NCBI GenBank assembly: GCA_037445455.1
Contig: JBBIKM010000007.1
Location: forward strand, 366 to 64,365
Source: a bacterium
Lineage (GTDB): Bacteria; Zhuqueibacterota; Zhuqueibacteria; Zhuqueibacterales; Zhuqueibacteraceae
Length of the DNA: 64,000 nt
Reading direction: 5' to 3'
Position numbers and translations under genes: made by a program. Within the stretch, counting starts at the first letter, position 1. Each line of letters starts with the position of its first letter. Below the pieces are notes generated by a model. It was not told the origin of the DNA and did not search any database. It was given only the letters and a program-made list of their open reading frames with translations. Shown here piece by piece: positions 22,870 through 62,625 of the stretch.

Positions 22870-24840
22870 ATGAAGAGGAATTTGGCGTTGATGATCATCG
22901 CGGCGGGCTTGATGGCCGGAGTCAGCACGGGCACGGACAAAGCCGCGAAAAGCTATCGCCGGGGTGGCGTGGCACCGGCCCAAAGCCCGGCGCAGACGCC
23001 CTTTACTCAAAACAAAGTGCATGATGTGGGAAACCTCAGACTGATTGTGAGCAACTACGGCCAATTCGGCTCCGATACGGAGAACGGGTGTGAGTTCCCC
23101 GCCAACTCCAATGTGAATTACCTCTATGTCGGTGCGATTTGGATCGGCGCCCTGGTGGATCGGCCCGGCGGCGGCGTCGATACCCTCGTCTCCTTCGGTT
23201 TTGACGGCGCCCAAATTTGGCGCGAGCTGTTTCCCGGCACTGCCGCCGCAGACTCGCTGCTGGAACTCAGCAATCAGCCGGGGTCTCCCAACTACGATGC
23301 GGCAGCGGTTTCCGAACAGGATTTCATCGCGGTCTACACCGATACCAACACCACCTTCGCCTGGGAAGGGCATCAAAAGCCGCTGGGCGTGAAGGTCACG
23401 CAGAAGAGTTATGCCTGGAGCTATTCCTACGCCGAGGATTTCGTCATCTTCGATTACTTTATCACGAACATCTCCCGCACCATCGGCGCGCCGCGCACCT
23501 TCCGTAAACTTTTCATGGGTGTTTACATCGACGGCGACTGCGGCCTGACCAGTATTTCCGGCTATCCTTATGACGACATCACCGGCTTCATGCGGGTGAA
23601 TGATGACGGCGACACCGTCAACGTCGCGTGGATCAAGGACAATGACGGCGACAACGGCGCCACCCCGGGCGTGACCGGCGTGCGCGTGCTTTTCCCGGAT
23701 CCAAAGACCATTTCATTCAACTGGTGGGACCCGCAGCCCCAGAACAACTGGGGTCCCACCAATCCCAACAACCCGTACGACTATTCCGGCCATCCAGACA
23801 CCGACGCCAAGAAATATCGCATCATGTCGAACGGCGAGATCGATCCTGATCAAACGCAGTCGAATCCGCCGCCGGGCATTGATCCCTCCGGCATGGACAC
23901 GCGCTACTTTCTCTCCTTTGGTCCGTTCGAGGTGCCGCCCGACAGCACGCTCAAGCTGACGCTGGCGTACGTTGGCGGATTGCCGGAAGGCGAAAAGAGT
24001 GAATTCGCAGATTTGGCGATCAATGCCCGCTGGGCGCGTGACGTTTATGACAACCCGCCGGCAGACGGCATACCGGATTTTGCCGGCCCGCCGCCACCGC
24101 CCGCGCCCAACATGGAAGTCATTCCCAGCGACAAGACCGTGACCATCCGCTGGGACAATTTCGCCGAAAGCACAGTCGATCGTTTCACCGGCAAGCAGGA
24201 TTTTCAGGGCTATCGTGTCTATCGCAGCCGCAGTGGGGTGAAGGGGGAGTGGCAGTTGTTGGCGGCGTTCGACCAAATTGACGGCTTCGGCGCTGACACT
24301 GGCTTTGACGAGCTTGTGCCATCCCGCGACCCGGGCAGCAGCAGAGTGTGGTACACCTACGTGGATCGCGGCCTCACCAATGGCGAGCTCTTCTACTATT
24401 CCGTCACGGCCTTTGACAGCGGCTACGGGCCGACCGGCTTGGAGCCCCTGGAAAGCAGTCCGCTCTCCAACATGAAACGGGTGGCACCCTCTGCCGGCCC
24501 GGCAGCGCAAGAGCCACTCGACGAAATCCTGGTCGTGCCCAATCCTTATCGCCTGAGTGAGAACTATTCGGCGATCGGCTGGGAGCGCGGCACTGCCGAC
24601 ACAGATCGGCGCATCGACTTCACCAACTTGCCGCCACAGTGCACCATTCGAATTTATTCCCTCGCGGGTGATTTGCTGGCGACCCTCGAGCACGATTACC
24701 CCACCCGCAGCGCAGTCAAGCACAGTGAATCGTGGAACATGGTGACGCGCAACATTCAAGCGATTGCCAGCGGGATTTATCTGTTTGCCGTCACCTCGGC
24801 GCAGGGTAAATATGCCGGCAAGTTTGCCGTCATCTATTGA
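22870..24840 (+). CDS. Secreted X-family protein 1 (unknown N-terminal domain, FN3-like domain, VVPNPY-type C-terminal sorting-like domain)
   Basis: Signal peptide; HDVGNL..SNYGQFG..CEFP..YLYVG-IWIGA; P-PP-P linker; VTIRWD..FQGYRVYR..YTYVD..YYYSVTAFD (FN3-like); VVPNPY..IDFTNLP..IRIYSLAGDL..IASGIY..GKFAVI. Confidence 0.8.
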   Translation: MKRNLALMIIAAGLMAGVSTGTDKAAKSYRRGGVAPAQSPAQTPFTQNKVHDVGNLRLIVSNYGQFGSDTENGCEFPANSNVNYLYVGAIWIGALVDRPGGGVDTLVSFGFDGAQIWRELFPGTAAADSLLELSNQPGSPNYDAAAVSEQDFIAVYTDTNTTFAWEGHQKPLGVKVTQKSYAWSYSYAEDFVIFDYFITNISRTIGAPRTFRKLFMGVYIDGDCGLTSISGYPYDDITGFMRVNDDGDTVNVAWIKDNDGDNGATPGVTGVRVLFPDPKTISFNWWDPQPQNNWGPTNPNNPYDYSGHPDTDAKKYRIMSNGEIDPDQTQSNPPPGIDPSGMDTRYFLSFGPFEVPPDSTLKLTLAYVGGLPEGEKSEFADLAINARWARDVYDNPPADGIPDFAGPPPPPAPNMEVIPSDKTVTIRWDNFAESTVDRFTGKQDFQGYRVYRSRSGVKGEWQLLAAFDQIDGFGADTGFDELVPSRDPGSSRVWYTYVDRGLTNGELFYYSVTAFDSGYGPTGLEPLESSPLSNMKRVAPSAGPAAQEPLDEILVVPNPYRLSENYSAIGWERGTADTDRRIDFTNLPPQCTIRIYSLAGDLLATLEHDYPTRSAVKHSESWNMVTRNIQAIASGIYLFAVTSAQGKYAGKFAVIY

Positions 24841-25135
24841 TGAGAGATTGCCACGTTGGCAATGACAAGCGCCTGGCCGCGGCAGAGGCAGGCTCGTGAG
24901 CTTGGGCTGCGCGGCGCGCTTGATTCGGCACTCAGACATGTGTTCCTCGTGGGAGCGGGCGCGCCGTCCGCAGGAGGGAGGCTGTTGCGGCCCTGGCGAA
25001 AGTGGTCAGGGCAATCTGCCGCAATCCGCAAGCCTGACGGCTGTCAAGAAAAAATGATGGAATGACTTCACCTTGAAACGGTCGACGGAGCTCGAGGATG
25101 AGTCCGGCGCGATCATTCTGTGAAGGGATGGAGAC

Positions 25136-27106
25136 ATGAAAAAGACTCTCCTGTTGACATTGCTGTTGAGTGTGGCTGCCGGGCTGGCCTTTGCCGGCGA
25201 TAAAGCGCGGCATGAGGCTGCCCGGCGCGGCCGGCAGCCGGCGCCGGCCAAGAGCATGGCGCTGCCGCCATTTACCCAAACCAAAGCCCATCAGGTGGGC
25301 AACATCTGGCTGTCGGTCACCAATTTCGGCGAGTTCGGCTCGCGCGGCCGGCGGCCGAGCTGCGAATTCCCCGCCAACTCGAACATCGAATATCTCTTCG
25401 TCGGCTCGATTTGGATCGGCGCTTTGGTCGACAAACCGGAGGGCGGCCTGGACACGCTGGTGTCCTTCGGCTTCGACGGCTGGCAATCATGGAACGAGCT
25501 GTTCCCCGGCTTTTCCGAATCTGACTCGATCCTCGAATTCACCAACCGCCCCGGCGCCCCAAACTACAGGCCGGACGCCATTTCTGAGCAGGATTTCGTT
25601 GCGGTTTACACCGACACCAATACCACTTTTGCCTGGGAAGGCCATCAAAAGCCGCTGGGCGTCAAAATCACGCAGAAGAGTTATGCCTGGAGCTATTCCT
25701 ACGCGGAGGATTTTGTCATCTTCGACTACCTGATCGAGAACATCTCCCGCTCGATCGGCAAGGCCCGCACGTTCAAGAAACTCTACATGGGCGTTTACAT
25801 TGACGGCGATTGCGGCTTGACGACTATCCCCAATTACTATGCCGATGATATCACCGGTTTCTTGCGGGTGAATGATGATGGGGACACCGTCAACGTCGCG
25901 TGGATCAAGGACAATGACGGCGACAACGGCGCAACCCCGGGCGTGACCGGTGTGCGCGTGCTCTTCCCCGATCCCAAGACCATTTCTTACAACTGGTGGG
26001 ATCCGCCCACGGACTGGGGGCCCACCAATCCCAACAATCCGCTCGATTATTCCGGCCATCCCGACACCGATGCCAAGAAGTATCGCATCATGTCGAACGG
26101 GGAAATCGATCCTGATCAAACGCAGTCGAATCCGCCGGCGGGCATTGATCCCTCCGGCATGGACACGCGCTATTTTCTCTCCTTCGGTCCCTTCGAGGTG
26201 CCGCCCGACAGCACGCTCAAGCTCACGCTGGCTTACCTGGGCGGCACGCCGGAAGGCGAAAATGACGAGTTCGATGATTTGGGCATCAACGCCCGCTGGG
26301 CGCGTGATGTTTATGACAACCCGCCGGCAGACGGCATACCGGATTTTGCCGGCCCGCCGCCACCACCTGCACCCAACATGGAAGTCATTCCCAGCGACAA
26401 GACCGTCACCATTCGCTGGGACAATTCGGCCGAAAGCACGGTCGATCGCTTCAGCCGGCTGCAGGACTTTCAGGGCTATCGCATCTACCGCAGCCGCAGC
26501 GGCGTGTTGAATGAGATGGAAATGCTGGGCGAGTATGATCAAGTCGATGGCTTCGGCTATGATTTCGGCTACAGCGCGTTGAATCCGACCACGGATGCTG
26601 CCACCGGCAAAGTGTGGTACACCTACGTGGATCGCGGCCTCACCAACGGTGAGTTTCTTTACTACGCGGTAACGGCGTTTGACAGCGGTTACGGGCCGAC
26701 CGGCCTGGAATCGCTCGAAAGCAGCCCGGTCATCAATTTGAAAAAGGTGGCGCCTTCGGCCGGACCGGACGGGACGCAAGCCATCAGCGAAGTGCTGGTG
26801 GTGCCCAATCCCTATCGCCTGAGTGAGAACTATTCGGCAATCGGCTGGGAGCGCGGCACTGCCGACACCGACCGGCGCATCGACTTCACCAACCTGCCGC
26901 CGCAGTGCACCATTCGCATCTATTCGCTCGCGGGGGACTTGCTGGCCACGCTCGAGCACGATTATCCCCGCCGCAGCGCGATCAAGCACAGCGAATCATG
27001 GAACATGGTGACGCGCAACATCCAGGCAATCGCGAGCGGCGTGTATCTCTTTTCCGTCACCTCTGCGCAAGGCACGTATGTCGGCAAATTTGCCGTCATC
27101 TACTAA
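25136..27106 (+). CDS. Secreted X-family protein 2, tandem paralog of X1
   Basis: Collinear with 22870-24840, with long identical peptide blocks such as NTTFAWEGHQKPLGVK, VNVAWIKDNDGDNGATPGVTGVRV and GWERGTADTDRRIDFTNLPP. Confidence 0.85.
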   Translation: MKKTLLLTLLLSVAAGLAFAGDKARHEAARRGRQPAPAKSMALPPFTQTKAHQVGNIWLSVTNFGEFGSRGRRPSCEFPANSNIEYLFVGSIWIGALVDKPEGGLDTLVSFGFDGWQSWNELFPGFSESDSILEFTNRPGAPNYRPDAISEQDFVAVYTDTNTTFAWEGHQKPLGVKITQKSYAWSYSYAEDFVIFDYLIENISRSIGKARTFKKLYMGVYIDGDCGLTTIPNYYADDITGFLRVNDDGDTVNVAWIKDNDGDNGATPGVTGVRVLFPDPKTISYNWWDPPTDWGPTNPNNPLDYSGHPDTDAKKYRIMSNGEIDPDQTQSNPPAGIDPSGMDTRYFLSFGPFEVPPDSTLKLTLAYLGGTPEGENDEFDDLGINARWARDVYDNPPADGIPDFAGPPPPPAPNMEVIPSDKTVTIRWDNSAESTVDRFSRLQDFQGYRIYRSRSGVLNEMEMLGEYDQVDGFGYDFGYSALNPTTDAATGKVWYTYVDRGLTNGEFLYYAVTAFDSGYGPTGLESLESSPVINLKKVAPSAGPDGTQAISEVLVVPNPYRLSENYSAIGWERGTADTDRRIDFTNLPPQCTIRIYSLAGDLLATLEHDYPRRSAIKHSESWNMVTRNIQAIASGVYLFSVTSAQGTYVGKFAVIY

Positions 27107-27117: not shown

Positions 27118-28107
27118 ATGGTTGCGAAGAAAATCGTTCTGCTCATGTGCGCCGCACTCCTGCCGGCGGCCGCCGTGCTGGCGCAGGATCGTGACCTCGA
27201 GCTGCGCGACACGGCCGGCCGCGGCAAGGTGGGCACCACCGGCATGCAGTTTCTCAAAATCGGCGTGGGCGCCCGCGCCGTCGGCATGGCCGAATCGTTT
27301 GTGGCGCTGGCCAATGACGCCAGCGCGATCTACTACAATCCCGCTGGCCTCACCGCGCTCGATCAAAAAGCGGTGCTGCTGAGCCACGTGGAATGGCCGG
27401 CGGACATCAACTACGAGTTTGGCGCGGCTGTTCTGCCGGTGGCGGGGGTGGGCGTGCTGGGCGTGCAGATCGGCATGCTTGCCACCGGCGACATGAAAGT
27501 CACCCTGCCCTATCAGGGCTGGACCGGCGGTTATTTCAATGCCAGCGACTGGATGGTGGGTGCCACCTTTGCGCGCCGGCTGACCAACCGCTTTTCCTTC
27601 GGCGGCACCGTGAAGTACCTCCGCGAATATCTCGGCAGCGCCGGCGTGAGCACCGTGGCGCTCGATCTCGGCACCTTGTTTGACATCGGCGTGCGCGGCA
27701 TGAAATTCGGAATGAACATCAGCAATTTCGGGCCGGATGCCAGGTACTTCCGCGAACAATTTTCCCTGCCCATCGATTTCCGCCTTGGCGCGATGATGGA
27801 TCTCTATCGCAACGAGTTCAACAGCCTGGTTGTCACCGTGCAGGGCAACCATCCCAATGACAACATCGAACAGCTCGCGTTGGGATTGGAGTACAACCTG
27901 AAAGAGCTGGTCGCGTTGCGCGCCGGCTATCGCACCAACCTGGAGCTGGAAAAACTCGACAAGGTCGATGAGCCGTTCGAAGGCTTCTCGTTTGGCGCCG
28001 GCGCCGCCTTCGGGCTTTCGGGCGTGCGCGGCCGCCTTGATTATGCCTATTCTGACTTTGGCTTTCTCGAATCGGCGCAACGCTTCACCCTCGCCCTGGA
28101 GTTCTAA
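27118..28107 (+). CDS. PorV/PorQ (UPF0164)-like outer-membrane barrel A
   Basis: Signal peptide, FLKIGVGARAVGM, NDASAIYYNPAGL, ALDLG, FGMNISNFG, LP..FRLG, GLEY, LRAGY, DYAY, C-terminal ALEF. Start placed at 27118. Confidence 0.88.
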   Translation: MVAKKIVLLMCAALLPAAAVLAQDRDLELRDTAGRGKVGTTGMQFLKIGVGARAVGMAESFVALANDASAIYYNPAGLTALDQKAVLLSHVEWPADINYEFGAAVLPVAGVGVLGVQIGMLATGDMKVTLPYQGWTGGYFNASDWMVGATFARRLTNRFSFGGTVKYLREYLGSAGVSTVALDLGTLFDIGVRGMKFGMNISNFGPDARYFREQFSLPIDFRLGAMMDLYRNEFNSLVVTVQGNHPNDNIEQLALGLEYNLKELVALRAGYRTNLELEKLDKVDEPFEGFSFGAGAAFGLSGVRGRLDYAYSDFGFLESAQRFTLALEF

Positions 28108-28199: not shown

Positions 28200-29312
28200 A
28201 TGCCGGCGTTCCGCAAATTTTGGTTGGTCATGAGCTGGCCGTTGGGGCTGGCGGCGTTGTTCCTGGGTTGCGGCAGCGGTGAATTACCCACCGCGGTGCA
28301 GCAACCGCAGGAGCTTTACGCCCCCTTTGTCAAGCAAGGCCCGGTGCTCGATGGCCGCGGTCTCGACGAAGTCTGGCAAAAGTCCACCGGCTATCGTGTT
28401 TTTCTCGATGCCAAAACCGGCGGTGTGAATCTGCCGGCGGAGGGGTTGTTGATCGAGTTCAAAGCAGTGTGGTGGCAGGAAACACAAATCGACACGGCGC
28501 GGCAGGACACGCTGGAGGTGGCGTACGTCGGCTTTCTGGCAACCTGGCCGGATGCCAGCAAGAGCCTGAGCCGCAAAACCTGGACTTTCAATCCCGCGGA
28601 CGCGCGCTGGTCGCGCAATGAGCAGGGTTCCGACTGGCTGTTGCTGTATTGGTACGGTCTCACCAAAGACACGGATATTTGGCTGTGGGATGCCGCCACC
28701 ACCAATCCCATGGGCTATTTTCAAGACATGACCGTCGAAGGCTTTCAAAGCGGCCGCACCTTCGAGCCTTATCTGGTGCGCGTGGATGGTTTGAATTTCT
28801 ACAACGACACCGCCACCAGCCGCAACACCTGGGATGAGAACTACGATGACAACCGCACACCGCGCGATCCGAGTGACGACCGGCCGCGCTTCGCCTGGAA
28901 AATCGATCCTGCCACAACGCCGCCAGGTCTGCCGCCGGTTTACTCTGACGCCAGTGAGAACGCGTTTTTTCTCATGGAGACCGAGGCCGCGACCCTGGCC
29001 ACCAGCGCTTATGCCGCGCCGCGCGCCGCGGTGACGGTGCCCGGCTACCTGCTGCAAGCGCCGAAGGGTGGGTCGGCCGACATCCGTTGTTTTGGCCGCC
29101 ACGAAAACGGCCGCTGGACGCTCGAGTTTGTGCGCAAGGCCACTGGCTCCGATGTCAGCGACATTCCCTTCAATCCCAAGGCACGCTTCTTCTCGCAAGT
29201 CTTTTCGGTGGTGCTGGGCAACGAGGCCTTGATGCCTTTTGAAGAGGGCGCCACAGCCTTCAACATCACCAACACCGTGCAACTGACGTTTCAGTTCGTG
29301 TTCGAGGAATAA
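28200..29312 (+). CDS. Lipoprotein with DOMON-like (ethylbenzene dehydrogenase EB_dh-like) domain
   Basis: Lipobox FLG|C; PVLDG..DEVW, FKAVW, FLATWPD, DIWLW, G-HENGRWTLEFVRK..D.PF resemble EB_dh/DOMON folds. Confidence 0.6.
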   Translation: MPAFRKFWLVMSWPLGLAALFLGCGSGELPTAVQQPQELYAPFVKQGPVLDGRGLDEVWQKSTGYRVFLDAKTGGVNLPAEGLLIEFKAVWWQETQIDTARQDTLEVAYVGFLATWPDASKSLSRKTWTFNPADARWSRNEQGSDWLLLYWYGLTKDTDIWLWDAATTNPMGYFQDMTVEGFQSGRTFEPYLVRVDGLNFYNDTATSRNTWDENYDDNRTPRDPSDDRPRFAWKIDPATTPPGLPPVYSDASENAFFLMETEAATLATSAYAAPRAAVTVPGYLLQAPKGGSADIRCFGRHENGRWTLEFVRKATGSDVSDIPFNPKARFFSQVFSVVLGNEALMPFEEGATAFNITNTVQLTFQFVFEE

Positions 29313-29315: not shown

Positions 29316-30524
29316 ATGATGCGAATGCTGCGCTCGATTTTCACCGCCGGCGCGCCGGCAGCGCTCGCGGGCCTGCTGCTGTCCTGCAACAATCAGCCGA
29401 CGGAGCAGGGCATGCTCGGCAGCAGCCAGCCGCCGGAAACCGCCTTTGCGCCCACGCCGCTCGACGGCTCGCAGAACAACGCCTTCAAGCTGCGGCTGGA
29501 ATGGCACGGCAATGATGCCGACGGCATCATTCAAGGTTATGAATACCGCGTGGCCGGTCCCCTGTTCGACAACTCCTGGCAATTCACCAAATCGTTTTTT
29601 GTGAATTTCAAATTCCGCGACGGCTGGTACACCGTGGAAGTGCGCGCGGTGGACAACACCGGCACTGTGGATCCCACGCCGGCGCGGCTGCGCTTTCACG
29701 TCGCCGGCCCGACGTTCGATCGCGGCATCCTGCTGCTGGATGATGACCCCAACGGCAATCTCGAGCAGGCATCGGATGCCTTCTATGACTCGCTTATGAT
29801 CGCCGCCGGCTATCGCAACTACACGTTTTGGGATTATCAAGCCCGCTTTGCTGCGCGCAAGCCGCCGTTCGTGACCACACCCAGTGATACCGACGCCACC
29901 GGCGCGCCGAGCCTCGGGCTGGGCGCGTTCTCCACCATCATCTGGTGCACCAACCCCGCCGGCAATTTGGGTTTGAATGAACGGCTGGTGCAGGACTATC
30001 TGGACATGGGCGGCAATCTCTGGGTCGCTGGCACGGATCCGCTGCAATCCCTCTCGGGTAAATCGCCCACCGGTCTCGATCTGGCGCCCAACAGTACGGG
30101 GTACAAATATTTCCACGTGCTGCGCGCCAAGGCAGCGGAACTCAATGTCGACTGGCTGCTGGGCACCGACAACCGCTTCCCGGACTTGGCGACCAGCTAC
30201 CAGGTGCCGCGCACGACGATTTTCCAATACCTCAAGGGCGTGGTCAATCAAGTCATTCCGCAGCCAGATGCCCGCGCCGTCTATCGCTTCAGCGAAAACT
30301 ACTTTCGGGATGCCAGCCGTGCGATTGACGTAAACAGTGAAGAGTTTGCCGGCACACCGTGTGCGATTCTCTATTCCGGCAGCACCTACAAAGCCGCCTT
30401 GTTCGGCTTCCCGTTGGTTGCGGCGGTGCGGGTCGGCTCCGCCACGGTCAATCTCGTCAACACCAGGGCCATGGCGCAGACGGTAGCGCATATCCTGGCC
30501 AACGAGTTCGGCGAGCCGCGCTGA
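29316..30524 (+). CDS. Lipoprotein A (Ig/FN3-like N-terminal domain plus conserved GILLLDDD C-terminal domain)
   Basis: Lipobox LLS|C; PPET..W-G-D-DG-I-GY-Y..VRAVDN-G-VDPTPA; C-terminal domain homologous to 39333-41093. Confidence 0.75.
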   Translation: MMRMLRSIFTAGAPAALAGLLLSCNNQPTEQGMLGSSQPPETAFAPTPLDGSQNNAFKLRLEWHGNDADGIIQGYEYRVAGPLFDNSWQFTKSFFVNFKFRDGWYTVEVRAVDNTGTVDPTPARLRFHVAGPTFDRGILLLDDDPNGNLEQASDAFYDSLMIAAGYRNYTFWDYQARFAARKPPFVTTPSDTDATGAPSLGLGAFSTIIWCTNPAGNLGLNERLVQDYLDMGGNLWVAGTDPLQSLSGKSPTGLDLAPNSTGYKYFHVLRAKAAELNVDWLLGTDNRFPDLATSYQVPRTTIFQYLKGVVNQVIPQPDARAVYRFSENYFRDASRAIDVNSEEFAGTPCAILYSGSTYKAALFGFPLVAAVRVGSATVNLVNTRAMAQTVAHILANEFGEPR

Positions 30525-30660
30525 AACCGTCAGCGCGACGGGCGCCGGCTTGCCAATCAAACCACCCTGGAGCGGCGGTGCAGAAGCGCCCCAGCAAATG
30601 GCGTGCGGCCTTCCGCGCCACCTGAGGGGGTCACCTTCTTGTACCGCAAGCGCAGTCCCT

Positions 30661-35500: not shown

Positions 35501-35796
35501 ACTCCAAGCGCTACCCCGAGACCTTCAACGTCGATATGCGCATGCGCCGCTTCTTCAACCTGACGTCTGGTGTGCGCGCCGGCCTCATCTTCGAAGTGCA
35601 GAACCTGTTCAACCGTCTCAATCCCATTTCGCCGGATGACGGCGGCATCGTGGATGCCTACCGCGACCTGATCGGTTTCACCAACGCCGGCACCTCACGC
35701 ACGCGCAACTATGGCGGGTTTGCGAATTCGGCGCCGAATCCGGCGGCATGGCAGAACGGCCGCATGATTCGTATCGGTTTCACCACCGAGTTCTAA
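32563..35796 (+). CDS. TonB-dependent receptor B with Asp-rich Ca-binding-like insertions
   Basis: Signal peptide|GTTGKIAG, LHIRGGR, YLVDGV, ISGGFNAEYG..SGII, GNPNLDPE, DWDQRH, C-terminal IGFTTEF. Contains DxDxDGxxDEE/D repeats. Confidence 0.93.
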   Translation: MKHARLRSVMVILTMLLVGAAAVFAGTTGKIAGKVIDRETGFPLPSATVILVGTTLGAATDINGEYFILNIPPGVYDVRASIIGYTAVVDKGVRVSADLTTTKDFALSSETLQLGDVVEVIAERPLIQKDVTGSSKVSTSDQIQSLPITTVNDAVALSAGTQGQGNNLHIRGGRAGEAAYLVDGVSIEDPQTRTIGLTVGRSALSELQIISGGFNAEYGNAQSGIILLNTQEAKREYSGHVFMQTDRIGDSGIGESAQNFDWLEASIGGPEPITTNLLPQLGLKIPGYMTLFLQGETRMDDRANFHPEAISRLNANSAIKESPKLNTSDALRNETLFGKLFGVGGNRESVRNNWESKLLWQMAPNKKLTFGFRGNSDKTHPWTFRFGRDVREVVAESHRLGISDMVDQDNDGSRDEELLDGLDNDGDGRIDEDTNLAPNYYLGDFAWGIDNDNDGRTDEEALNDIDDDGDGRVDEDLQPYDWKGYDHNWRNEFRANQFSLNWTHTLNPKTFYEVKVGRFYTFSGSLPKLGQDGRSRSSFEELEAWVAEYDRIVALYGQGRVPEFMEPYRGFGTPAERFTDLNGNGDYDAGEPFQDYDGDGLYDLNNDPDRRNANQNWFLEGATHPFRGQNINGGYWANDRAGFNKRSSTTYSLKFDLTSQVTKNHQIKTGIEANYFELKNRSRQLLGPYDGRGLFGNSYSVFPNWQAGYIQDKMEFSSAIVNLGVRFERFDQGEQVAVQDTSVGVPRFETPTTKWSVLPRVGFSFPVTDRDMFYFSYGHFFQRPQLTNVFNQVNQRIDSPNSIVGNPNLDPEQTIQYEFGIRRQFGLNTLFSVTGFFKDIDNLLQIRQEFDVAGNTFFTYQNDTYGTVKGLELSLQQRAGRFFSGDATYTFQVAKATHSDPRDTYDTLDIIDGVEFPADWDQRHRVVLNLDFHYGQGEGPKLGNFRLLENWNVNFLAQYGTGMPYTPQTLTGSPLVPLTNSKRYPETFNVDMRMRRFFNLTSGVRAGLIFEVQNLFNRLNPISPDDGGIVDAYRDLIGFTNAGTSRTRNYGGFANSAPNPAAWQNGRMIRIGFTTEF

Positions 35797-53400: not shown

Positions 53401-55790
53401 GCACCAGCGTGCGCTTCAACCCGCTGGCCGCCACGCAAATGGCGATTCGCAGCGGCCACAGCCAGACCGGCAACGTCAACACGGCGCTGTTGGAGCCGCT
53501 GAGCGTGCTGGTGACGGACCAATTCAACAACGGCGTGCCCAATGTGGCGGTGGAATTCAACGTCGAGGCCGGCGAGGGCCGTCTGCTCGGCCCGAACACG
53601 GTGGTGACCGACACCAATGGCGTGGCGGCGATCCAGTACGTGCTCGGCCCAAGCGTGACCGAGAATCGCGTGCGCGCCACTTCCACCGGCTTGCGGAATT
53701 CGCCGCTCATCTTCGTGCTTAATGCCGTCAACAATCCGGCGCGCAGCCTGCAACTGATTTCCGGCAACGGCCAAACCGGCGTGGTGCTGGAAGATCTGCT
53801 GCAGCCGCTGGTGGTGGGCGTGGTGGACAAGGACAACCGTCCGGTGGCCGGCAAGACCATCAAATTCGAAGTGACGTTCGGCGGCGGCCAGGTCAATGGC
53901 GGCCAGAGCGCGAACGTGAGCAGTGATGAATTTGGCCTGGCGAAAGTGGTCTGGCGCCTCGGGCCCAGTGCGGGCTTGAACGTTGCACGCGCGAGTGGCT
54001 CCAACTTGAACAATTCGCCGCTCGATTTCCAGGCGCAGGCGCGCACCGGCCGGCCCACCAGCCTCGTGCAAGTGAGCGGTGACGGCGCCGCCGGGCCGGT
54101 CAATCAGACTCTGGCCACGGCGCTGGTGGTGCGCGTGGTGGATGCCAACAGCAACGGCATCGACGGCGTGCCGGTGATTTTCGAGCTGATTCAGGGCACG
54201 GGCCAGCTTGCCAACGGCTTCGTCAACACCGCCAATGGCGGCTTTGCTTCCACGCAAATCACCTTTGATGGCGTGAGCGGCCCGCGCAAAATTCGCGCGA
54301 GTTCCAACGGGTTGACCAACTCACCGTTGTACTTCACGGTGACTGCCACGCCGAGCGCCGCCAGCCGGATGCAGGTGGTGGCGCGCACCAACAACCAGAG
54401 CGGTACCGCCGGTCTGCCGTTGAATTTTCCGCTGCAGACCAAGGTCACCGACGCGTACGGCAATGCGATTGCCGGCGTGCCGATCAGCTATGTGGTGAAG
54501 AAAGGCGGCGGCAATTTTGCGGGACAGGCGGCGGCCACGGTCATGACCAATGCGCAAGGCCTCGCGCAAATCCCGTGGACCGTTGGCCCCGGCGCCAATG
54601 AAGCCGAAGCCATCGGCACCGGCCTGACCGGCTCGCCGATCGAATTCAAGGCCACCGGCGTGATCGGCAACAACTTCCCGATCATCGTCGACGTGCCGGA
54701 TCAGCAAGCCGTGGAAGGCACGCGCATCGAATTTGTGATCAGTGCGGCGGATGCGGACAACGAGGCCATTCGCTACCGCGCGGCCAATCTGCCGCCCGGT
54801 GCGGTGTTCGACTCGCTCGGCACCCGCATCTTCACCTGGCAAACTGATCTCACCAGCGCCGGCCGTTATGAAGTCAGCTTCTTTGCGCGCGACTTGCGCG
54901 GCGGCCAGGACGAAGAGATCGTCGTCATCGAGGTGGCGAACCGCAATCAACCGCCGGTGATCGTCAGCCGCATTCCGGTCGGCGTGCCGGGCGCGCCGCA
55001 GGACACCACGGTGCTGAGCGGCAAGCTCACCATGCGCGTCAACGCGGTTGACCCCGACGGCGACGTGTTGAGCTATCGCTGGTACTTGAACGGCGAGCTG
55101 ACCAGCGCCATTACCAACACCTTTGAGTTCGACAGCAAGATTAAACTCAATGCGGTGGAAGCCTGGGTGTTCGATCTGGAAGACACGGTGCGCACGCGCT
55201 GGACGGTGCGCACGCCGGTGCAGCTCGAAACCTTCACCGCCACCGCGGTGGAGGGCAAGGGCGTGCGCCTGGAATGGGTCACCGCCGGCGAGACTGAGAA
55301 CGCCGGGTTCAACTTGCTGCGCAGCCGCAGCCGCGAGGGTGAGTATGAAAGCATCAATGTGCAGATCATTACCCCGAGCCTGGACGGCCGTTATTCCTAC
55401 CTCGACACCGAGGTCGAAGTCAACGCCCGTTACTTCTACAAGCTTGAGGACATCGATCTCAACGGCAACATTACCGTGCACGGCCCGGTGGAGATCACCG
55501 TGGCGCCGCCCGCGCGCTTCGACTTGGCGCAGAATTACCCGAACCCGTTCAACCCGTCCACCAACATCCGCTATCAACTGCCGCAGGAAACCCGGGTCAA
55601 GCTCGTGATCTACAACCTGATCGGTCAGGAAGTGCGCGAGCTGGTGAACACCATCATGCCGGCAGGTTATCACACCGCGGTGTGGGACGGCCGCGACCAG
55701 CGCGGCAAGCTGGTGCCCTCGGGCATCTACTACTATCGCCTCGAGGCCGGCGGCCAGGTGATGGTGAAACGCATGACGTTGCTGAAGTAA
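47493..55790 (+). CDS. Giant (2765 aa) secreted SGNH esterase / lectin-like / FN3 / Big_1 Ig-repeat protein with T9SS type A-like C-terminal domain
   Basis: Signal peptide; SGNH blocks GNSIT, HEGHSG, GTND and DNLH; two beta-sandwich modules; FN3; about 13 SG-NQ-G..L--PL-V-V-D--GNPV repeats; cadherin/He_PIG-like module; PVQLETF; LAQNYPNPFNPST..KRMTLLK. Confidence 0.9.
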   Translation: MVPMNSKLWLRRVWWLGLMVAVFGFGAAQAQTKIMPLGNSITEGTGSSNNAGFRYFLFNLLSNAGTSFDFVGSLQDGSGFPDTEHEGHSGFRAEQLDVTTYLTQHNPDYVLLEVGTNDISQNDTPAQVRDDIAAILDAIHAYNPAIRTYLSTVVPRKDNAAKETATQNLNALLPALVSAKVAAGHQVVLVDNHDRLTADPNWQTTLMADNLHPNDGGYELMATEFFNAIQGYQPGVDDFADDFNSGVLSTNWTAHPGFQVQSNQLVNTSTVDAWNNHLAIPNVITNPNVVEFTYGSLSNAEGRYFTGVALLLDKAATDASGYLLLRNETSVRLFTIVNGVPGASVATVAGTVATPPQAGDRLRVEWRSDSNGHHFVVYLNDQLDAVVDDPARLQGNAVTTYAGMMVHGNTTDGVDDFHLFKQTDSTPPAFVSDLSAINVTSATVELRWRAPGDDGDTGTARSYDLRYSTALITESNFNSATPVAGVGNPKPAGSVENFTVGGLQSGTRYYFALKSSDEVGNTSGLSNVVAATTTALTLSSDTFDRPGPSLGANWAADARLQIINNEVQHTATIDIWTPAVFKLGRNAQEVSIVWGGNATVYGANFSGVLVLADSFNTRPNGYMIQHSNERGKTRLWRMQNGNLTTMLDEGNAFGPNTRAGSEMKVIIRREAAAHFFDVYINGVFDRTLSDPAKLENGSYSGFVLESTLGAENAITRFAVGVLPSSPAKLLVVSGNNQTGRVRQKLANPLKVSLYDSFDNPVPGAEVNFTATVGQASFSRADNNIRIEAESGQITAPIVVQDDPEASGGKYIVYPVPQNEAGSAVYTFNIPVSGTYYIWARNLTPGESGANSWTVSVDGGNPFIYDVFQGQRSNTWKWDLLSERGTGNPSNPQFDPKTFDWAAGTHTLVVEGRFDRARLDKFLITRDASYIPQDKEEGGSRTDENGIASTEVMLGTLAGPIKVEAQFGGLLPALFNLTAQPGFPGGLAQATGSGQSGPAGQLLAQPFTVVVTDSFGNPTANGRVSWVVTEGNGQLSSYRATSDSTGKVEVGFAPGNGSSQNKVVAAAAFTNQRFEFTAQTTSGVATAAELVSGSNQTGGVASTLPAPLVMRVADAGGQPVAGFPVEFETVRGGGTTTGHNAVANGGFERGNNNLPGQWTLEGSPTTDEVRLNPSNPQAGSRSVLVNANRNAVGVSQVISYAANTSYTLTFWAKVDSGVLRVTWRMNDAAGNLQDTIVDVTPEATAGAWRRYMVTATNQAAANRPLFFRTLNSGEFRVDEVSVVRNTGADGRLAVNWTLGDTVGTQQVRAMARNASGTNLSGSPVLFTAQATVGAAAKLVEVGGNNQLGTAGQPLGAPLVVKVTDVVGNPVSNISVLFEVIQGGGNLAGAATANAVTDAQGLAQAVLTLGTNPAVSNQVRASATGLTGSPIIFTASIGTPARLAKISGDNQVGTAGSAAPANLVVKITDAGNKAISGASVTFTVQQGNGTINGNSNAILRTDGNGEARATFVLGPLAGGENRVRASAEFNGQALQGSPQNFVVKAAALKEMVIADGNNQVGLAGEPLANPLRVTLLDTLNHGVPQQQVTFTVIEGGGKLDNGSTASTVSTDSTGRAQVRLTLGSQIGTNNNKVRAQAALPVPGSPQIFQASAQVGPPAVLKKIDGDSLSGVVNNPLPKPLVVQVTDRAGNPLFGVNVVFEVLEGGGNFDGVTKDTVTTNDLGRAQVTLTLGATSGLYNNKVRARAFNGSLELQNSPMLFVATAAPSRARVLAITAGNRQQGLAGEPLAEPLRVRVLDIQGNPIKDHPVRFRSSGAANGTFSATGTTDTTAITNANGIAAVTWILGRSILPDSQTVIATANDGLQNLQGSPATFKAAAVAGLPSAATSSITATGPVPANGQSRSTITVTVKDKFGNVIANQPVQLIVSGSNNNIQQTGNTDAQGRATGSLASTKAELKIITAKVAGVYEIKPGTSVRFNPLAATQMAIRSGHSQTGNVNTALLEPLSVLVTDQFNNGVPNVAVEFNVEAGEGRLLGPNTVVTDTNGVAAIQYVLGPSVTENRVRATSTGLRNSPLIFVLNAVNNPARSLQLISGNGQTGVVLEDLLQPLVVGVVDKDNRPVAGKTIKFEVTFGGGQVNGGQSANVSSDEFGLAKVVWRLGPSAGLNVARASGSNLNNSPLDFQAQARTGRPTSLVQVSGDGAAGPVNQTLATALVVRVVDANSNGIDGVPVIFELIQGTGQLANGFVNTANGGFASTQITFDGVSGPRKIRASSNGLTNSPLYFTVTATPSAASRMQVVARTNNQSGTAGLPLNFPLQTKVTDAYGNAIAGVPISYVVKKGGGNFAGQAAATVMTNAQGLAQIPWTVGPGANEAEAIGTGLTGSPIEFKATGVIGNNFPIIVDVPDQQAVEGTRIEFVISAADADNEAIRYRAANLPPGAVFDSLGTRIFTWQTDLTSAGRYEVSFFARDLRGGQDEEIVVIEVANRNQPPVIVSRIPVGVPGAPQDTTVLSGKLTMRVNAVDPDGDVLSYRWYLNGELTSAITNTFEFDSKIKLNAVEAWVFDLEDTVRTRWTVRTPVQLETFTATAVEGKGVRLEWVTAGETENAGFNLLRSRSREGEYESINVQIITPSLDGRYSYLDTEVEVNARYFYKLEDIDLNGNITVHGPVEITVAPPARFDLAQNYPNPFNPSTNIRYQLPQETRVKLVIYNLIGQEVRELVNTIMPAGYHTAVWDGRDQRGKLVPSGIYYYRLEAGGQVMVKRMTLLK

Positions 55791-56194: not shown

Positions 56195-58558
56195 CTACTT
56201 GGTCAGCAGCATGCGCTTGGTGAGCACTTGCGCGCCGAAGCGCAGGCGGTAGAAATAGACACCCGAAGCCAGCGCAGAGCCGTCAAAGGGGACTTCATGA
56301 CGGCCGGCAACCAGATGCTCATCAACCAACACCGCGATTTCCTGCCCCAGCGTGTTGTAGATCGCCAGGCGCGCGGCGCCGTTCGCCGGCAGGTTGAAGA
56401 CGATGATGGTAACAGGATTGAACGGGTTGGGATAATTCTGCTCCAGGCTGAATTGCTGCGGGATTTCCGGATTTTCCGCCACCGCGGTGCCGCTGCCGGT
56501 CTTGAAGCGCCAGGCCTCCGACCACAAGCCGACACCGATGGCATTTGTTGCCCGCACGCGCCAAAAGTAGAAACGATTTGCTTCCAGGCCGCTGGCCGCA
56601 AATGAGGTATCGCTCAGACTGCTTTCAGCGACCACCAAAGCGGTCGAATCGAAGGTCAGGCTGCGCGCGACCTGCAGGTCATAGGAACTTGCCGCAGCAG
56701 AACGCCGCCACTGAAACACCGGATTCAGCGCAATCTCGCCGGTGTTGTTTGCCGGAGAAACCAGCAAGGGCGCGGCCGGGAATCCCGTGGTAAAACTGAA
56801 AGCCTGCGAGAAGAAACTCGTGCCCCCGGCATTGCTCGCGCTGACCCGCCAGAAGTACTTGGTCTGTCCCGCCAGCCCGGTGATGGTTTTGAAGGTATCC
56901 ACCACCCCGGTTTCATTCACCAGCAGCGCGGTTGCAAAGCTGGAATCGCTGGCCACCTGCACGTGATAGGAGGTTGCGGTTGCCGGGGCATACCAGCGCA
57001 ACGTGACGTTCGGCGCCAGGTCGAGTGCGCCATTCGCGGGCAAAGCCAGCAGCGGCACAGCCGGCGGCAGCACCTGAATCACATTGCTCATTTCGCTTTC
57101 GTTGAAATTGCGATCGAGCGCCGTCACCACGTAGTAGTGCGGACCATTGTCCGACGGCGTCGGCAACAGCGCGGCGTTCTCACCGACAACTGCCGCGATC
57201 TTGCTCGGATCCTCCAAGTCGGCGGGACTGACATTGGGTGTAGTGAAATGATAGACGGCGTAACGCGAAGCGGTATCGCCGTCGCCGGCCGGCGGCGGCG
57301 CCTCCCAGCGCAGCGCGGCGGGGCCGCCGGCGGCCAGGCGTTCATAGCGCAAATTCTGTGGGGCATTGGGCAGCACGCTGTCCTTCCACGCCATCACCGG
57401 CGGCAAGGCGGGATAGCGAAAGAGATCGGTGCGCAGGCTGTCGGCGAAGCCCTTGGCATTGTCGCGGAAAAACAGCGCGCGGAACATGATGCTGCCCTGC
57501 ACCTCGGGATTGGCGCGATTGGCGCGCACCTGCCGCGGGATTTCGTTGGCCGGCCAGTTGGCGGCGCGATAGATGGCCTGGCCGGGATAGAAATGCCGGC
57601 TGTTGCGTTGCGAGGCCCACCACGGCATGAGCTTGCCGTAATCCTGGCCGCCGCCGAAGGGCCAGTAGAGCTGCGGGGTGATGTAATCGACGATCTGCCG
57701 CTGCAGCCAGGCCACCGCGTCGCAATAGATCGTGCTGTAGGCATCCAGGCCGGTGATGCCGGCAGGCACGCCGTTCTTCCAAATGCCGAACGGGCTCATG
57801 CCGAATTTCACGTGCGGCTTGACCGCTTGAATGCTGTCGTGAATCGTTTGAATGAGCAGATTGACGTTGTCGCGCCGCCAGTCGGCAAGGTTGGTGAAGC
57901 CGCGGCTGTAATTCGCAAAAGTCGCGGCGTCTTGATTGCCGATTTGATTGGGCGGATAAGGATAGAAATAATCGTCGAAGTGGACGCCGTCAACATCGTA
58001 GCGGCTTACCACGTCCATCACCACGTTGGTGATGTGCTGGCGCGCCTGCGGCAGGCCGGGATCGAGAATCTTGATCGTGCTGATCTGAATCACCCAGTCC
58101 GGATGCTGCACGGAAACATGGCGGGGATCATTGGGATAGTTGCCCACTTCCCGCGAGACGCGATAGGGATTGAACCAGGCATGCAGTTCCATGCCGCGCT
58201 GGTGCGCCTCCTGAATCGCGAATTCCAGCGGATCATAGAAGGGCGAAGGCGCCAAACCCTGGCCGCCGGTCAGCCAGAATGACCAGGGCTCAAGCGTCGA
58301 GGGGTACATGGCATCCGCTTCGGAGCGGACTTGAAAAATCACGGCATTCACATGATGGGTCTGCAGCTCATCCAGCAGCCGCACCAGCTCGGCGCGCTGC
58401 GCGGCGGGCGTGAGATAGGGCGAGCTGGGCCAGTCGAGATTGATCACCGTGGCGATCCACGCACCGCGAAACTCACGCTTGGGCGGCAGGGATTGCGCGG
58501 AGGCGGAAAAGGACGCGGTGAGCAAAAGCAGCGAGCAGAGCAGGAGCAATTTCTTCAT
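56195..58558 (-). CDS. GHL10 (DUF187, YddW/DigH-like) glycoside hydrolase with FN3 repeats and T9SS type A-like C-terminal domain
   Basis: REFRGAWIATV-NLDWP, FQVR..DAMYPS, HAWFNPYR, YDVDGVHFDDYFYPY, FGMSPFGIW, DYITPQLYW; FN3 modules; LEQNYPNPFNP..KRMLLTK. Confidence 0.92.
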   Translation of the reverse strand: MKKLLLLCSLLLLTASFSASAQSLPPKREFRGAWIATVINLDWPSSPYLTPAAQRAELVRLLDELQTHHVNAVIFQVRSEADAMYPSTLEPWSFWLTGGQGLAPSPFYDPLEFAIQEAHQRGMELHAWFNPYRVSREVGNYPNDPRHVSVQHPDWVIQISTIKILDPGLPQARQHITNVVMDVVSRYDVDGVHFDDYFYPYPPNQIGNQDAATFANYSRGFTNLADWRRDNVNLLIQTIHDSIQAVKPHVKFGMSPFGIWKNGVPAGITGLDAYSTIYCDAVAWLQRQIVDYITPQLYWPFGGGQDYGKLMPWWASQRNSRHFYPGQAIYRAANWPANEIPRQVRANRANPEVQGSIMFRALFFRDNAKGFADSLRTDLFRYPALPPVMAWKDSVLPNAPQNLRYERLAAGGPAALRWEAPPPAGDGDTASRYAVYHFTTPNVSPADLEDPSKIAAVVGENAALLPTPSDNGPHYYVVTALDRNFNESEMSNVIQVLPPAVPLLALPANGALDLAPNVTLRWYAPATATSYHVQVASDSSFATALLVNETGVVDTFKTITGLAGQTKYFWRVSASNAGGTSFFSQAFSFTTGFPAAPLLVSPANNTGEIALNPVFQWRRSAAASSYDLQVARSLTFDSTALVVAESSLSDTSFAASGLEANRFYFWRVRATNAIGVGLWSEAWRFKTGSGTAVAENPEIPQQFSLEQNYPNPFNPVTIIVFNLPANGAARLAIYNTLGQEIAVLVDEHLVAGRHEVPFDGSALASGVYFYRLRFGAQVLTKRMLLTK

Positions 58559-60372: not shown

Positions 60373-62625
60373 CTATTTCACAAACAGCATGCGCTTGGTG
60401 AGAACTTCGTTCTCGAATTTCAGGCGATAGTAGTAGGTGCCGGTGGCCAGGCCGGTGGCGTCAAACTTCAGGTTGTGGTTGCCGGGCGCCATCATCTGAT
60501 CAACCAGAGTGGCGACCTGGCGGCCCATCATGTCGAACACCACCACTTGCACGCGCCCCTGCTTCTGCAAGCTGAAGGGGATCGTGGTCTGCGGGTTGAA
60601 CGGGTTGGGATAGTTCTGGAACAACTGGAAGGTTTCCACATAGGCCCAGTTGCTCTCCCGGCCTTCCACGCTGGTGCCCACGCGCATGAACTTCTGCACG
60701 ATCGGATAGTCGCTGGCGCCGAAGCAGAGCACATAGGCAATGTTGCGATTCGGGCTGAAGGCAATGCCGCGCGGCCGTTCATTGGCGTTCATGGGCGTGT
60801 TGAACTGCCATTCAATCCAATCGACGATCTCATTGGTCGCCGGATCATAGGCATACCAAACGTTTGGCTTCCAGAAAGTCGTCGCGCCCGGGAAACGATT
60901 GGGCAGATCGTTGTAGGAGCCGGCGCTGAACCAGAGCTGGGTGCCGTTGGGATCCCACACCACGGATTCGCAGTCAAAGCCCTTCAACAGCGTGTCAGTG
61001 ACGGCGAAGGCCGAAAACTCGTCCGGACGGGTGTACTTGTAAACTGCGTGAGTGGTGTAACCGCACCAGTAGATGGTGTTACCATCCTTGGAAACTTCAA
61101 AGCTGCGGGAGAAGCCCACCGAGCTGTCCACCGCATTGCCCAGGAAATTGAAATCCTTGTCAAAAATCTTGATGGCGTTTGGAGGAATCACTGGTGCGGT
61201 GAAGAGATTGCCCTGGGCATCCACTGCCGGCGCGGTGAGCGTGACGCCTGCCGTCGGTATCACTTTGGCCAAGCCGGCACCGGTCTTGTAGTCGATCCGA
61301 TAAACTGCATCGAAATGAACCGCCAAGATGTTGCCGTCATAATCCGTGCGCAGGCCGCGGGCGCTGTTGTACAGCGTGTCGGTCACGCCACCGACGGTGA
61401 TGGTCTTGATCGGTGAGAACGGCGCCGGCGTGCCGTCGGGGGTGAAGACGTTGAGCACGCGCGTAGCGCGCTTGTTGCCAGCCGCGGTGGTGATACTGTC
61501 ACTGGCGCCGAAGAATTGCACCCAGACTTTGCCGTCCGGGTCGACCGCGATGCCGTGGCCGCCCGAGAAGCCCTTGAAATTGTCGTTGGGGAAATTGCTC
61601 TTCGAAGTGGCCGGGAAACTGCTTTGCAGGCGCTCGAACTTCTGCACGATTGGATAATCGCTGGCGCCGAAGCAAGTCACGTACGCGGTGTTGCCATCCG
61701 GGCTGAAGGCGATGCCGCGCGGCCGCTCATTGGCGTTCATGGGCGTGTTGAACTTCCACTCGATCTTGTCCACCACTTTGTTGTTCACCGGATCGTAGGC
61801 GTACCAGGTGTTGGGCTTCCAGTAGGTGGTGGCGCCCGGGAAGCGATTGGGCAGATCGTTGTAGGAGCCGGCACTGAACCAAAGCAGGGTGCCGGTCGGG
61901 TCCCACACCACGGATTCGCAGTCAAAGCCCTTCAACAGCGTGTCAGTGACGGCGAAGGCCGAAAACTCGTCCGGACGGGTGTACTTGTAAACTGCGTGAG
62001 TGGTGTAACCGCACCAGTAGATGGTGTTACCATCCTTGGAAACTTCAAAGCTGCGGGAGAAGCCCACCGAGCTGTCCACCGCATTGCCCAGGAAATTGAA
62101 ATCCTTGTCAAAAATCTTGATGGCGTTTGGAGGAATCACTGGTGCGGTGAAGAGATTGCCCTGGGCATCCACTGCCGGCGCGGTGAGCGTGACGCCTGCC
62201 GTCGGTATCACTTTGGCCAAGCCGGCACCGGTCTTGTAGTCGATCCGATAAACTGCATCGAAATGAACCGCCAAGATGTTGCCGTCATAATCCGTGCGCA
62301 GGCCGCGGGCGCTGTTGTACAGCGTGTCGGTCACGCCACCGACGGTGATGGTCTTGATCGGTGAGAACGGCGCCGGCGTGCCGTCGGGGGTGAAGACGTT
62401 GAGCACGCGCGTAGCGCGCTTGTTGCCAGCCGCGGTGGTGATACTGTCACTGGCGCCGAAGAATTGCACCCAGACTTTGCCGTCCGGGTCGACCGCAATG
62501 CCGTGGCCGCCCGAGAAGCCCTTGAAATTGTCGTTGGGAAAATTGCCGGCGAATTTCCATTGCGCCTGGCTGCTGGTTGCCGCCAGCGCGAGAACGACGA
62601 CCAAGGCTGATAGCCATTTAGACAT
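60373..62625 (-). CDS. Secreted tandem beta-propeller-like protein (two 316-aa repeats) with T9SS type A-like C-terminal domain
   Basis: Signal peptide; the unit GHGIAVDPDGKVW..RPRGIAFSP occurs twice; FQNYPNPFNPQT..KRMLFVK. Confidence 0.85.
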   Translation of the reverse strand: MSKWLSALVVVLALAATSSQAQWKFAGNFPNDNFKGFSGGHGIAVDPDGKVWVQFFGASDSITTAAGNKRATRVLNVFTPDGTPAPFSPIKTITVGGVTDTLYNSARGLRTDYDGNILAVHFDAVYRIDYKTGAGLAKVIPTAGVTLTAPAVDAQGNLFTAPVIPPNAIKIFDKDFNFLGNAVDSSVGFSRSFEVSKDGNTIYWCGYTTHAVYKYTRPDEFSAFAVTDTLLKGFDCESVVWDPTGTLLWFSAGSYNDLPNRFPGATTYWKPNTWYAYDPVNNKVVDKIEWKFNTPMNANERPRGIAFSPDGNTAYVTCFGASDYPIVQKFERLQSSFPATSKSNFPNDNFKGFSGGHGIAVDPDGKVWVQFFGASDSITTAAGNKRATRVLNVFTPDGTPAPFSPIKTITVGGVTDTLYNSARGLRTDYDGNILAVHFDAVYRIDYKTGAGLAKVIPTAGVTLTAPAVDAQGNLFTAPVIPPNAIKIFDKDFNFLGNAVDSSVGFSRSFEVSKDGNTIYWCGYTTHAVYKYTRPDEFSAFAVTDTLLKGFDCESVVWDPNGTQLWFSAGSYNDLPNRFPGATTFWKPNVWYAYDPATNEIVDWIEWQFNTPMNANERPRGIAFSPNRNIAYVLCFGASDYPIVQKFMRVGTSVEGRESNWAYVETFQLFQNYPNPFNPQTTIPFSLQKQGRVQVVVFDMMGRQVATLVDQMMAPGNHNLKFDATGLATGTYYYRLKFENEVLTKRMLFVK

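Follow-up and report, generated by a model that had tools for sequence, protein, structure and literature searches.

PorZ-like C-terminal tails encoded beside PorQ-like barrels and TonB-dependent receptors in a Zhuqueibacterota genome

In the general PorV-PorU route of a type IX secretion system (T9SS), the tail of the cargo is cleaved and the cargo is attached to lipopolysaccharide (LPS). PorZ and PorU of P. gingivalis illustrate another fate: each is an exported surface protein that keeps its C-terminal domain (CTD) and is held by a barrel of the PorV/PorQ family, PorQ and PorV, respectively; binding of these domains to a cognate barrel without cleavage is established or proposed (PMC10202324, PMC10947112), and the uncleaved PorZ and PorU tails are 96-108 amino acids long, as compared to 67-88 for cleaved T9SS tails (PMC11285876). 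Type B CTDs form a distinct tail class, with genes clustered with a dedicated barrel gene (SprB-SprF, PG1035-PorP), and the PorP/SprF-like barrel is thought to anchor the uncleaved type B protein (PMC10202324). For both PorZ-PorQ and type B-PorP, reviews propose that a cognate PorV-like barrel protects and anchors the uncleaved tail (PMC10202324). Here we describe a 64,000-nucleotide stretch of DNA (the window; contig JBBIKM010000007.1, positions 366 to 64,365, of assembly GCA_037445455.1) from a bacterium of the Zhuqueibacterota, in which three proteins, X1, X2 and X3, end in a VVPNPY domain (the X tail) and are encoded in the company of PorV/PorQ-family barrels and TonB-dependent receptors. 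The reading that we favor, at a probability of about 0.55, is that X is a Sec-exported surface protein whose PorZ-like tail would stay uncleaved and be held by a private PorQ-like barrel, in the service of the adjacent receptor.

Two tail classes and the nearest kin of the X tail

The original prediction, made from the letters of the window, listed eight tail-bearing proteins with two terminal motifs; all eight proteins are where it placed them. Five proteins end in the ordinary type A sequence, QN(Y/F)PNPFNP...SG.Y(F/Y)..L...K(R)M.L.K, and three in VVPNPY...(I/F).F.NLP..(C/A).I(R/Q)I(Y/F)(S/T)LAGDL...(S/A)GIYL(F/Y).V....GKF.V(I/V): X1 (22870..24840, + strand; 656 amino acids with a signal peptide; tail 24523-24837), its tandem paralogue X2 (25136..27106, +; tail 26789-27103) and X3 (35873..38071, +; 732 amino acids; tail 37766-38068). 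The X tail shares with the ordinary type A CTD (TIGR04183/PF18962) an immunoglobulin (Ig)-like beta-sandwich, the PNP(F/Y) and G.Y.Y motifs and a basic C-terminus, but at 101-105 amino acids it has traits of its own: (i) an extra loop of 15-25 residues, which separates the PNPY strand from the “I.F.NLP” strand; (ii) a “CTIRI(F/Y)T” strand; and (iii) a “GKFAV(I/V)K” end in place of K(R)M.L.K. Existing models register these tails only marginally: while the five type A proteins of the window score 33-44 bits on TIGR04183, all above its cut-off of 23, full-length X3 and X2 score 23.2 and 17.3 bits, and X1 has no match; the X3 tail alone reaches 28.7 bits, weak matches are found for 12 of 12 X tails tested, and PF18962 gives X tails at most 19 bits (cut-off 27). 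Profiles built for each class from members in the same genome keep the two apart, awarding 50-136 bits to their own members and at most 30 to those of the other class; X1, which matches no Pfam family, scores 120 bits with the X-tail profile and 18 with the type A profile.

Does this make VVPNPY a third tail class, as the original prediction proposed? As judged by profile scores, the X tail is a separable class, and that part of the proposal stands. Its independence from type A does not: hhalign aligns the X-tail profile with the window type A tails at 97% probability over 53 core columns, and by this measure the two tails are homologous; the X tail is best seen as a PorZ-like subclass within the type A fold. 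Some close X homologues already bear the name “T9SS type A sorting domain-containing protein” in NCBI's pipeline. Membership in type B is excluded: TIGR04131 matches one of 12 X tails, weakly (E 9.5e-4), the nine matches to CHU_C (PF13585) among these 12 all lie under its cut-off of 27 bits, and, while type B systems combine the TIGR04131 tail family with PorP/SprF barrels, the barrel adjacent to X is of the FadL-like PorV/PorQ family.

If the X tail is a variant of type A, which known tails does it resemble most? Sequence searches and a structural model agree that its nearest relatives are the C-terminal domains of PorZ and, next, PorU. Each of the 12 X tails tested aligns with the final ~90 positions of NF052228, the model for PorZ (best E 5.9e-9), with a match confined to the last ~100 residues (27-35 bits; X3 31 bits); at E <= 0.001, PorZ is listed for none of the five type A proteins of the window. 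Among PDB sequences, the X-tail profile has just two matches, PorZ (5M11, E 3.4e-6, ending in RFAVIR) and PorU (6ZA2, E 3e-3); the window type A profile misses both and instead picks up FlgD, RgpB and substrate tails of Flavobacterium johnsoniae. The fold of the X tail as modeled by AlphaFold2 (AF2; predicted local distance difference test, pLDDT, 81) is best matched by PorZ (E 2.3e-5, TM 0.68); next come the substrate tails seen bound in structures of the T9SS translocon, and PorU.

X is neither PorZ nor PorU itself. The PorZ equivalog (NF052228) asks for at least 260 bits over the full length and two beta-propellers, and X proteins fall short of it, with 31-35 bits over the last ~100 residues; the propeller and C25 domains are absent, and the true PorU is encoded on contig C131. 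In place of the double beta-propeller of PorZ or the C25 peptidase of PorU, the X family has an N-terminal beta region, Asp-rich Ca-binding-like loops, a beta-sandwich and an FN3 domain ahead of the CTD. In the AF2 model of X3 (pLDDT 75), a signal peptide is followed by the Asp-rich loops, the well-predicted beta-sandwich, FN3 and the X-type tail, with no propellers. A fold search with full-length X3 returns only low-TM multi-domain matches, to PorZ (via the tail), to FN3 arrays and to enzymes of GH116/GH94 type (their beta-sandwich domains), which suggest no specific function for the body. When the last 110 residues are removed and the remainder is used in an iterated profile search, 17 of 19 X-tail carriers in the genome fall into one protein family: by this test, the X tail is not a general tag on assorted cargo but is confined to one family.

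Linkage of tail, barrel and receptor genes

Tails were called on six-frame open reading frames of the whole assembly (6.4 Mb, 351 contigs), which yield 215 type A tails and, by higher profile score, 21 X tails, of which 18 reach at least 50 bits. A PorV/PorQ-family gene lies directly downstream, on the same strand, of 15 of the 17 assessable X-tail genes as compared to 3 of the 215 type A genes (Fisher p = 7e-19); this is the enrichment that the original prediction had expected from a census with a VVPNPY profile. The three barrel-adjacent type A genes have atypically low type A scores and divergent barrels next door. Seen from the barrel, an X gene is directly upstream of 15 of 16 assessable cassette-type barrels, and the barrel is usually the next gene behind the tail-bearing one, 11-200 nucleotides (nt) away. 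X-tail genes without a directly downstream barrel are X1, which precedes X2, and a gene on contig C137, where the order is rearranged and the cluster is kept. A TonB-dependent receptor with a CarboxypepD_reg domain is found before X in nearly all cases, making up ~18 trios in the genome.

In the window itself, X2 and X3 directly precede barrel 1 (27118..28107, +; 11-nt gap) and barrel 2 (38189..39223, +; 117-nt gap), respectively; the same adjacency had been claimed for X1, which instead precedes its tandem paralogue X2. None of the five type A genes has a barrel neighbor, in agreement with the earlier reading; the closest starts 2.5 kb beyond barrel 2, on the far side of a lipoprotein gene. 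The adjacent genes were also rightly called PorV-like: on NF033709 (PorV/PorQ family, cut-off 90), barrels 1 and 2 score 214 and 204 bits with model positions 1-326 covered, and on PF19572 (PorV, cut-off 27), 39.6 and 34.1 bits. Within this family they place closer to PorQ (NF033711; 93 and 102 bits, below the equivalog cut-off of 220) than to PorV (NF033710; 77 and 69 bits, below the equivalog cut-off of 250); on UPF0164 (PF03687) they score 18.3 and 16.6 bits, under the cut-off of 21.4.

The type A cargo proteins of this genome number more than 200, and its T9SS includes a PorU orthologue (contig C131, 883 bits). The locus that best matches the canonical PorV model is on contig C3 (44857-45821, −; 168 + 63 bits, split over two frames), the most PorQ-like gene on contig C202 (177 bits) and a PorV2-like gene on contig C10; because all these loci lie elsewhere in the genome, the cassette barrels are, as the profiles place them, an additional, expanded subfamily. 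The split in the C3 locus reflects either an assembly frameshift or a pseudogene, and the locus adjoins a gene for a T9SS-dependent M6-like inactivated metalloprotease (663 bits). A second PorU-like gene, on contig C100 (9323-13963, +), scores 251 + 98 bits on NF033707, under the cut-off.

Four proteins with divergent tails and unrelated N-terminal bodies (a BNR propeller on contig C12, NHL on C65 and two others on C259 and C126) are each encoded before a divergent PorV/PorQ barrel. No receptor is found near any of these four pairs, and tail-barrel linkage thus reaches beyond the receptor module. On C12 (11480-13980, −), the 478-residue BNR/Ycf48-like beta-propeller protein is directly upstream of a 303-residue PorQ-like barrel; its tail is a weak match to the PorZ model and scores 29 bits with the X profile and 49 with the type A profile, and the pair may be the functional PorZ-PorQ equivalent of the organism. 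Other barrels of this group have C-terminal extensions: OmpA-like peptidoglycan-binding domains at C65:7262-9229 and C126:411-3629, and a long helical region at C259:3281-5266.

How far does the linkage extend? A search of 1.84 billion representatives with the X-tail profile yields 5,174 clusters at 50% identity (E <= 1e-10); among the matches listed, nearly all those made of a single stretch are at the extreme C-terminus. Some public proteins (P0121-P0128; 1,400-3,900 amino acids) contain 8-21 internal copies of a domain matching the X-tail profile, and the fold thus also serves as a repeated internal Ig-like module. In the same phylum, X-tail matches occur in 61 of 61 sampled genomes, and the trio is present at the flanks of the best match in 20 of 20; the order is receptor-X-barrel at 18 of these 20 loci, which are the top-scoring matches and may represent a single orthologous cassette. 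The trio recurs in many of 80 loci from other phyla (Cloacimonadota, Zixibacteria, Eisenbacteria, Krumholzibacteria, Ignavibacteria, Rhodothermales and others) that were found with a full-length X3-family alignment and are biased to X3 relatives. At these loci, a barrel is directly downstream of 31 of 54 assessable X-tail genes and of none of 24 type A genes (p = 4e-7). A complete Rhodothermales chromosome has a barrel after 11 of 14 X tails, the remaining three forming one tandem array; in Krumholzibacteria and Eisenbacteria, a barrel follows only about one-third of X-tail genes.

These counts bear on the most skeptical explanation, namely that sampling has split one type A family into two apparent classes and that the adjacency is a coincidence created by recent local duplication. 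X1 and X2 are recent duplicates, and X3 does reach the TIGR04183 cut-off, as an artefact would have it. Yet cassette paralogues differ at ~65% of tail and barrel positions, and the pattern is seen in at least eight phylum-level lineages and ~5,000 clusters at 50% identity, next to the Fisher p value of 7e-19 in the genome itself. The class profiles and the linkage counts in this genome, in its phylum and in other phyla refute this explanation, leaving it a negligible probability.

The genes around the X genes complete the picture of the locus. The contig has ~60% G+C, and those homologues that bear a name point to candidate division KSB1 or to Calditrichota-like bacteria, in the Fibrobacterota-Chlorobiota-Bacteroidota (FCB) group. 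Between 18.4 and 41.1 kb the window holds two collinear + strand gene sets, cassettes a and b, with intergenic gaps of 3-295 nt. Cassette a runs from a weak FadL-like gene through TonB-dependent receptor 1 (TBDR1), X1, X2, barrel 1, Lip1 and Lip2 to a GWxTD protein; cassette b is TBDR2, X3, barrel 2 and Lip3. TBDR1 (19983..22775, +; CarboxypepD_reg PF13620 65 bits, Plug PF07715 34.7, OMP_b-brl_4 46), one of ~20 paralogues in the genome, and TBDR2 (32563..35796, +; CarboxypepD_reg domain, PF00593 113 bits, Plug PF07715 33.7 bits) both have the Plug and barrel domains of TonB-dependent receptors. The FadL/Toluene_X-like gene (18444..19835, +; 463 amino acids; PF03349 26.0 bits, cut-off 29.7) ends 147 nt before TBDR1 and is possibly the first gene of cassette a, which, if it is counted, may encode two FadL-superfamily barrels.

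Barrel 1 is followed by genes for Lip1 (28200..29312, +), a lipoprotein (LGC lipobox) that weakly resembles the ethylbenzene-dehydrogenase fold and is unique to cassette a within the genome; Lip2 (29316..30524, +), a lipoprotein that matches Lip3 in phmmer (3.9e-24); and the GWxTD-domain protein (30550..32097, +; TIGR04514 101 bits; start codon uncertain), which ends the cassette; of the 11 GWxTD paralogues in the genome, two adjoin other cassette genes (contigs C174 and C115). Lip3 (39333..41093, +), a lipoprotein with an LTGC lipobox and FN3/Ig-like N-terminal domains, comes after barrel 2; a gene of the Lip2/Lip3 family, which has no Pfam match, is therefore found after the barrel in both cassettes. 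Such lipoproteins recur in Krumholzibacteria, where X alternates with a distant Lip2/Lip3 relative (X-Lip-X-Lip) and one array (G065) has a single barrel, after the last X. Where X is followed not by a barrel but by a gene of 750-900 amino acids, Pfam finds no match in the latter; at Krumholzibacteria loci, phmmer shows such genes to encode a lipoprotein distantly related to Lip2/Lip3, and at the X-Lip-X-Lip loci L015, L038, L053 and L059 neither barrel nor receptor is nearby.

The type A genes follow cassette b. Two encode BNR-repeat proteins (41781..43550, +, tail 43296-43547, TIGR04183 43.2 bits; 43671..45563, +, tail 45309-45560, 44.4 bits); the third encodes a protein of 2765 amino acids (47493..55790, +, 32.6 bits) with a GDSL esterase at its N-terminus, FN3 and CBM4_9 domains, nine or more Big_1 repeats and the type A tail. 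A GHL10 glycosyl-hydrolase-like protein (56195..58558, −; PF02638 237 bits, TIGR04183 37.5 bits) and an NHL/beta-propeller protein (60373..62625, −; TIGR04183 38.0 bits) are encoded on the opposite strand.

How X may be held on the cell surface

If the X tail is a PorZ-like variant of the type A sorting domain, X would be exported via the T9SS translocon. It would then bypass the general PorV-PorU route: the uncleaved tail would be captured by the PorQ-like barrel encoded directly downstream, and this barrel would keep X at the cell surface without a covalent bond, in the manner of PorQ and PorZ. Anchored in this way, X could be for the TonB-dependent receptor, whose gene lies directly upstream, what SusD or surface glycan-binding lipoproteins are for SusC: a capture or lid partner on the outside of the cell. 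We infer tail retention, tail-barrel contact and X-receptor cooperation from the analogy to these systems; that the tail is “read by” the adjacent barrel, as the original prediction put it, is suggested by analogy and gene linkage together.

What argues for a private pairing of tail and barrel? First, the X tail is kin to the uncleaved PorZ and PorU tails, the barrels are PorQ-like, and the linkage between the two is near one-to-one. Second, nature has performed a swap: X-family members with an ordinary type A tail (on contigs C280 and C285, each only ~5.5 kb long) have neither barrel nor receptor adjacent, and the same is true of X-family homologues with a type A tail at nine loci in other phyla. 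Third, X1 and X2, which have barrel 1 in common, are 79% identical overall but unevenly so: identity is 57% in the first 150 residues, 87-92% in the middle, 66% at alignment positions 450-550 and ~90% in the tail. This pattern suggests that the N-terminal, possibly ligand-facing, region has diversified while the interface to the shared barrel was kept. The loop inserted between VVPNPY and NLP is conserved in orthologues from 20 genomes and variable among paralogues, which fits a specificity region.

The match to the described systems is partial. As in PorZ-PorQ, the tail is closest to that of PorZ and the barrel is more like PorQ than PorV; the order of genes, the tail-bearing one and then the barrel, is presumably that of porU-porV in P. 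gingivalis. PorZ-PorQ, however, is one pair found in Bacteroidota, whereas ~18 X-barrel pairs are present in one genome, each coupled to a TonB-dependent receptor, in FCB phyla other than Bacteroidota, and their scores are far under the PorZ and PorQ equivalog cut-offs. SusC/SusD systems (RagA/RagB) and utilisomes offer the other likeness: a CarboxypepD_reg-type TonB-dependent transporter is encoded beside a surface partner, and the pairs have multiplied into many paralogues, often beside secreted hydrolases. Unlike SusD, the X partner is no lipoprotein but a T9SS substrate with a barrel of its own; the window receptors score 48.5 and 55.5 bits on SusC/RagA (TIGR04056), under the cut-off of 368, and no neighboring gene has a SusD-like match in Pfam or NCBIfam.

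Why should a barrel of PorV's family hold on to its client rather than pass it on? A private shuttle would do the latter: the PorV-like barrel would transiently collect X at the translocon and deliver it to PorU, which would cleave the tail and leave X LPS-linked or released. The family assignment (NF033709), the homology of the X tail to cleavable type A tails and the presence of PorU all suit such a shuttle, and a role that is catalytic and less stoichiometric would account for the orphan X-tail genes, which have no barrel in cis. The closest relatives of the X tail, however, are two uncleaved tails, not cleaved ones, and ~18 one-to-one barrels are hard to explain if type A cargo, more than 200 proteins in all, makes do with one general PorV. 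We consider a shuttle distinctly improbable.

A different alternative takes the barrel away from the tail altogether. The barrel could be a FadL-type channel or a structural partner of the receptor, in which case the age and divergence of the X family alone would set its tail apart from type A, and X would follow the general T9SS route. FadL-like barrels can serve other outer-membrane machines as docking subunits, as BamG does in the Bacteroidota beta-barrel assembly machinery (BAM) (PMC12578637). Distances between barrels and receptors correlate best of all pairs (r = 0.88), the barrel comes directly after the receptor on C137, and another FadL-like gene precedes TBDR1. Against a receptor-bound barrel stand the four divergent tail-barrel pairs on C12, C65, C259 and C126, which do without a receptor, the loss of the barrel from X-family members that have ordinary type A tails, and its normal place right behind the tail-bearing gene, 11-200 nt away. 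This alternative is unlikely, though it deserves to be kept in view.

Several observations weigh against a PorZ-like tail held by a barrel of its own. Resemblance between the X tail and PorZ is modest (~24% identity, 27-35 bits). Mantel tests show all four parts, tail, barrel, receptor and X body, diverging together (r 0.72-0.88, p = 2e-4), with the barrel-receptor pair highest; cassettes therefore duplicate as units, and tail-barrel contact is not singled out. Gene order is variable: C137 has the receptor and then the barrel, with X 7 kb upstream, and two of the 20 trio loci of the phylum are ordered receptor-barrel-X. Loci outside the genome were picked by similarity to X3 or by top score and do not make an unbiased census. 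Among the assessable X-tail genes of other phyla, 23 of 54 are without an adjacent barrel, many of them in Krumholzibacteria and Eisenbacteria, as is the Rhodothermales tandem array; a private barrel in cis is thus not obligatory. The notion of a partner-specific addressing tag survives only in part: linkage to the barrel is strong, but the tag belongs to one protein family (17 of 19 carriers) and orphan carriers exist.

What the pairing would mean

We found no description of the receptor-X-barrel trio in the literature searched, where absence is not proof of absence; the module would seem to be an undescribed means by which relatives of Bacteroidota place a capture protein beside an importer. 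A broader proposal is tentative, and we rate it below even odds: that in FCB phyla other than Bacteroidota (KSB1/Calditrichota-like lineages, Cloacimonadota, Zixibacteria, Eisenbacteria, Krumholzibacteria, Ignavibacteria and Rhodothermales) the general plan would be for each TonB-dependent importer to have a T9SS-delivered capture protein, docked through an uncleaved PorZ-type tail onto a dedicated PorQ-like barrel according to a loop-borne code, and that the one PorZ-PorQ pair of the Bacteroidota attachment complex would be a specialized offshoot of what would be an older and much more abundant module.

The X-tail profile is a practical annotation marker for proteins that are now labeled “hypothetical” or lumped with type A cargo. 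If the pairing is physical, T9SS sorting would extend beyond two or three classes to a large set of cognate pairs of tails and PorQ-like barrels (~5,000 clusters at 50% identity), and the single known case of PorZ-PorQ would become a widespread principle. How a tail escapes cleavage by PorU and finds its own barrel could then be tested with many natural variants and a candidate specificity loop. The same pairing would show how abundant uncultured degraders that have no SusD fit their TonB-dependent transporters with surface partners, which bears on how the utilization of polysaccharides and proteins is read from metagenomes.

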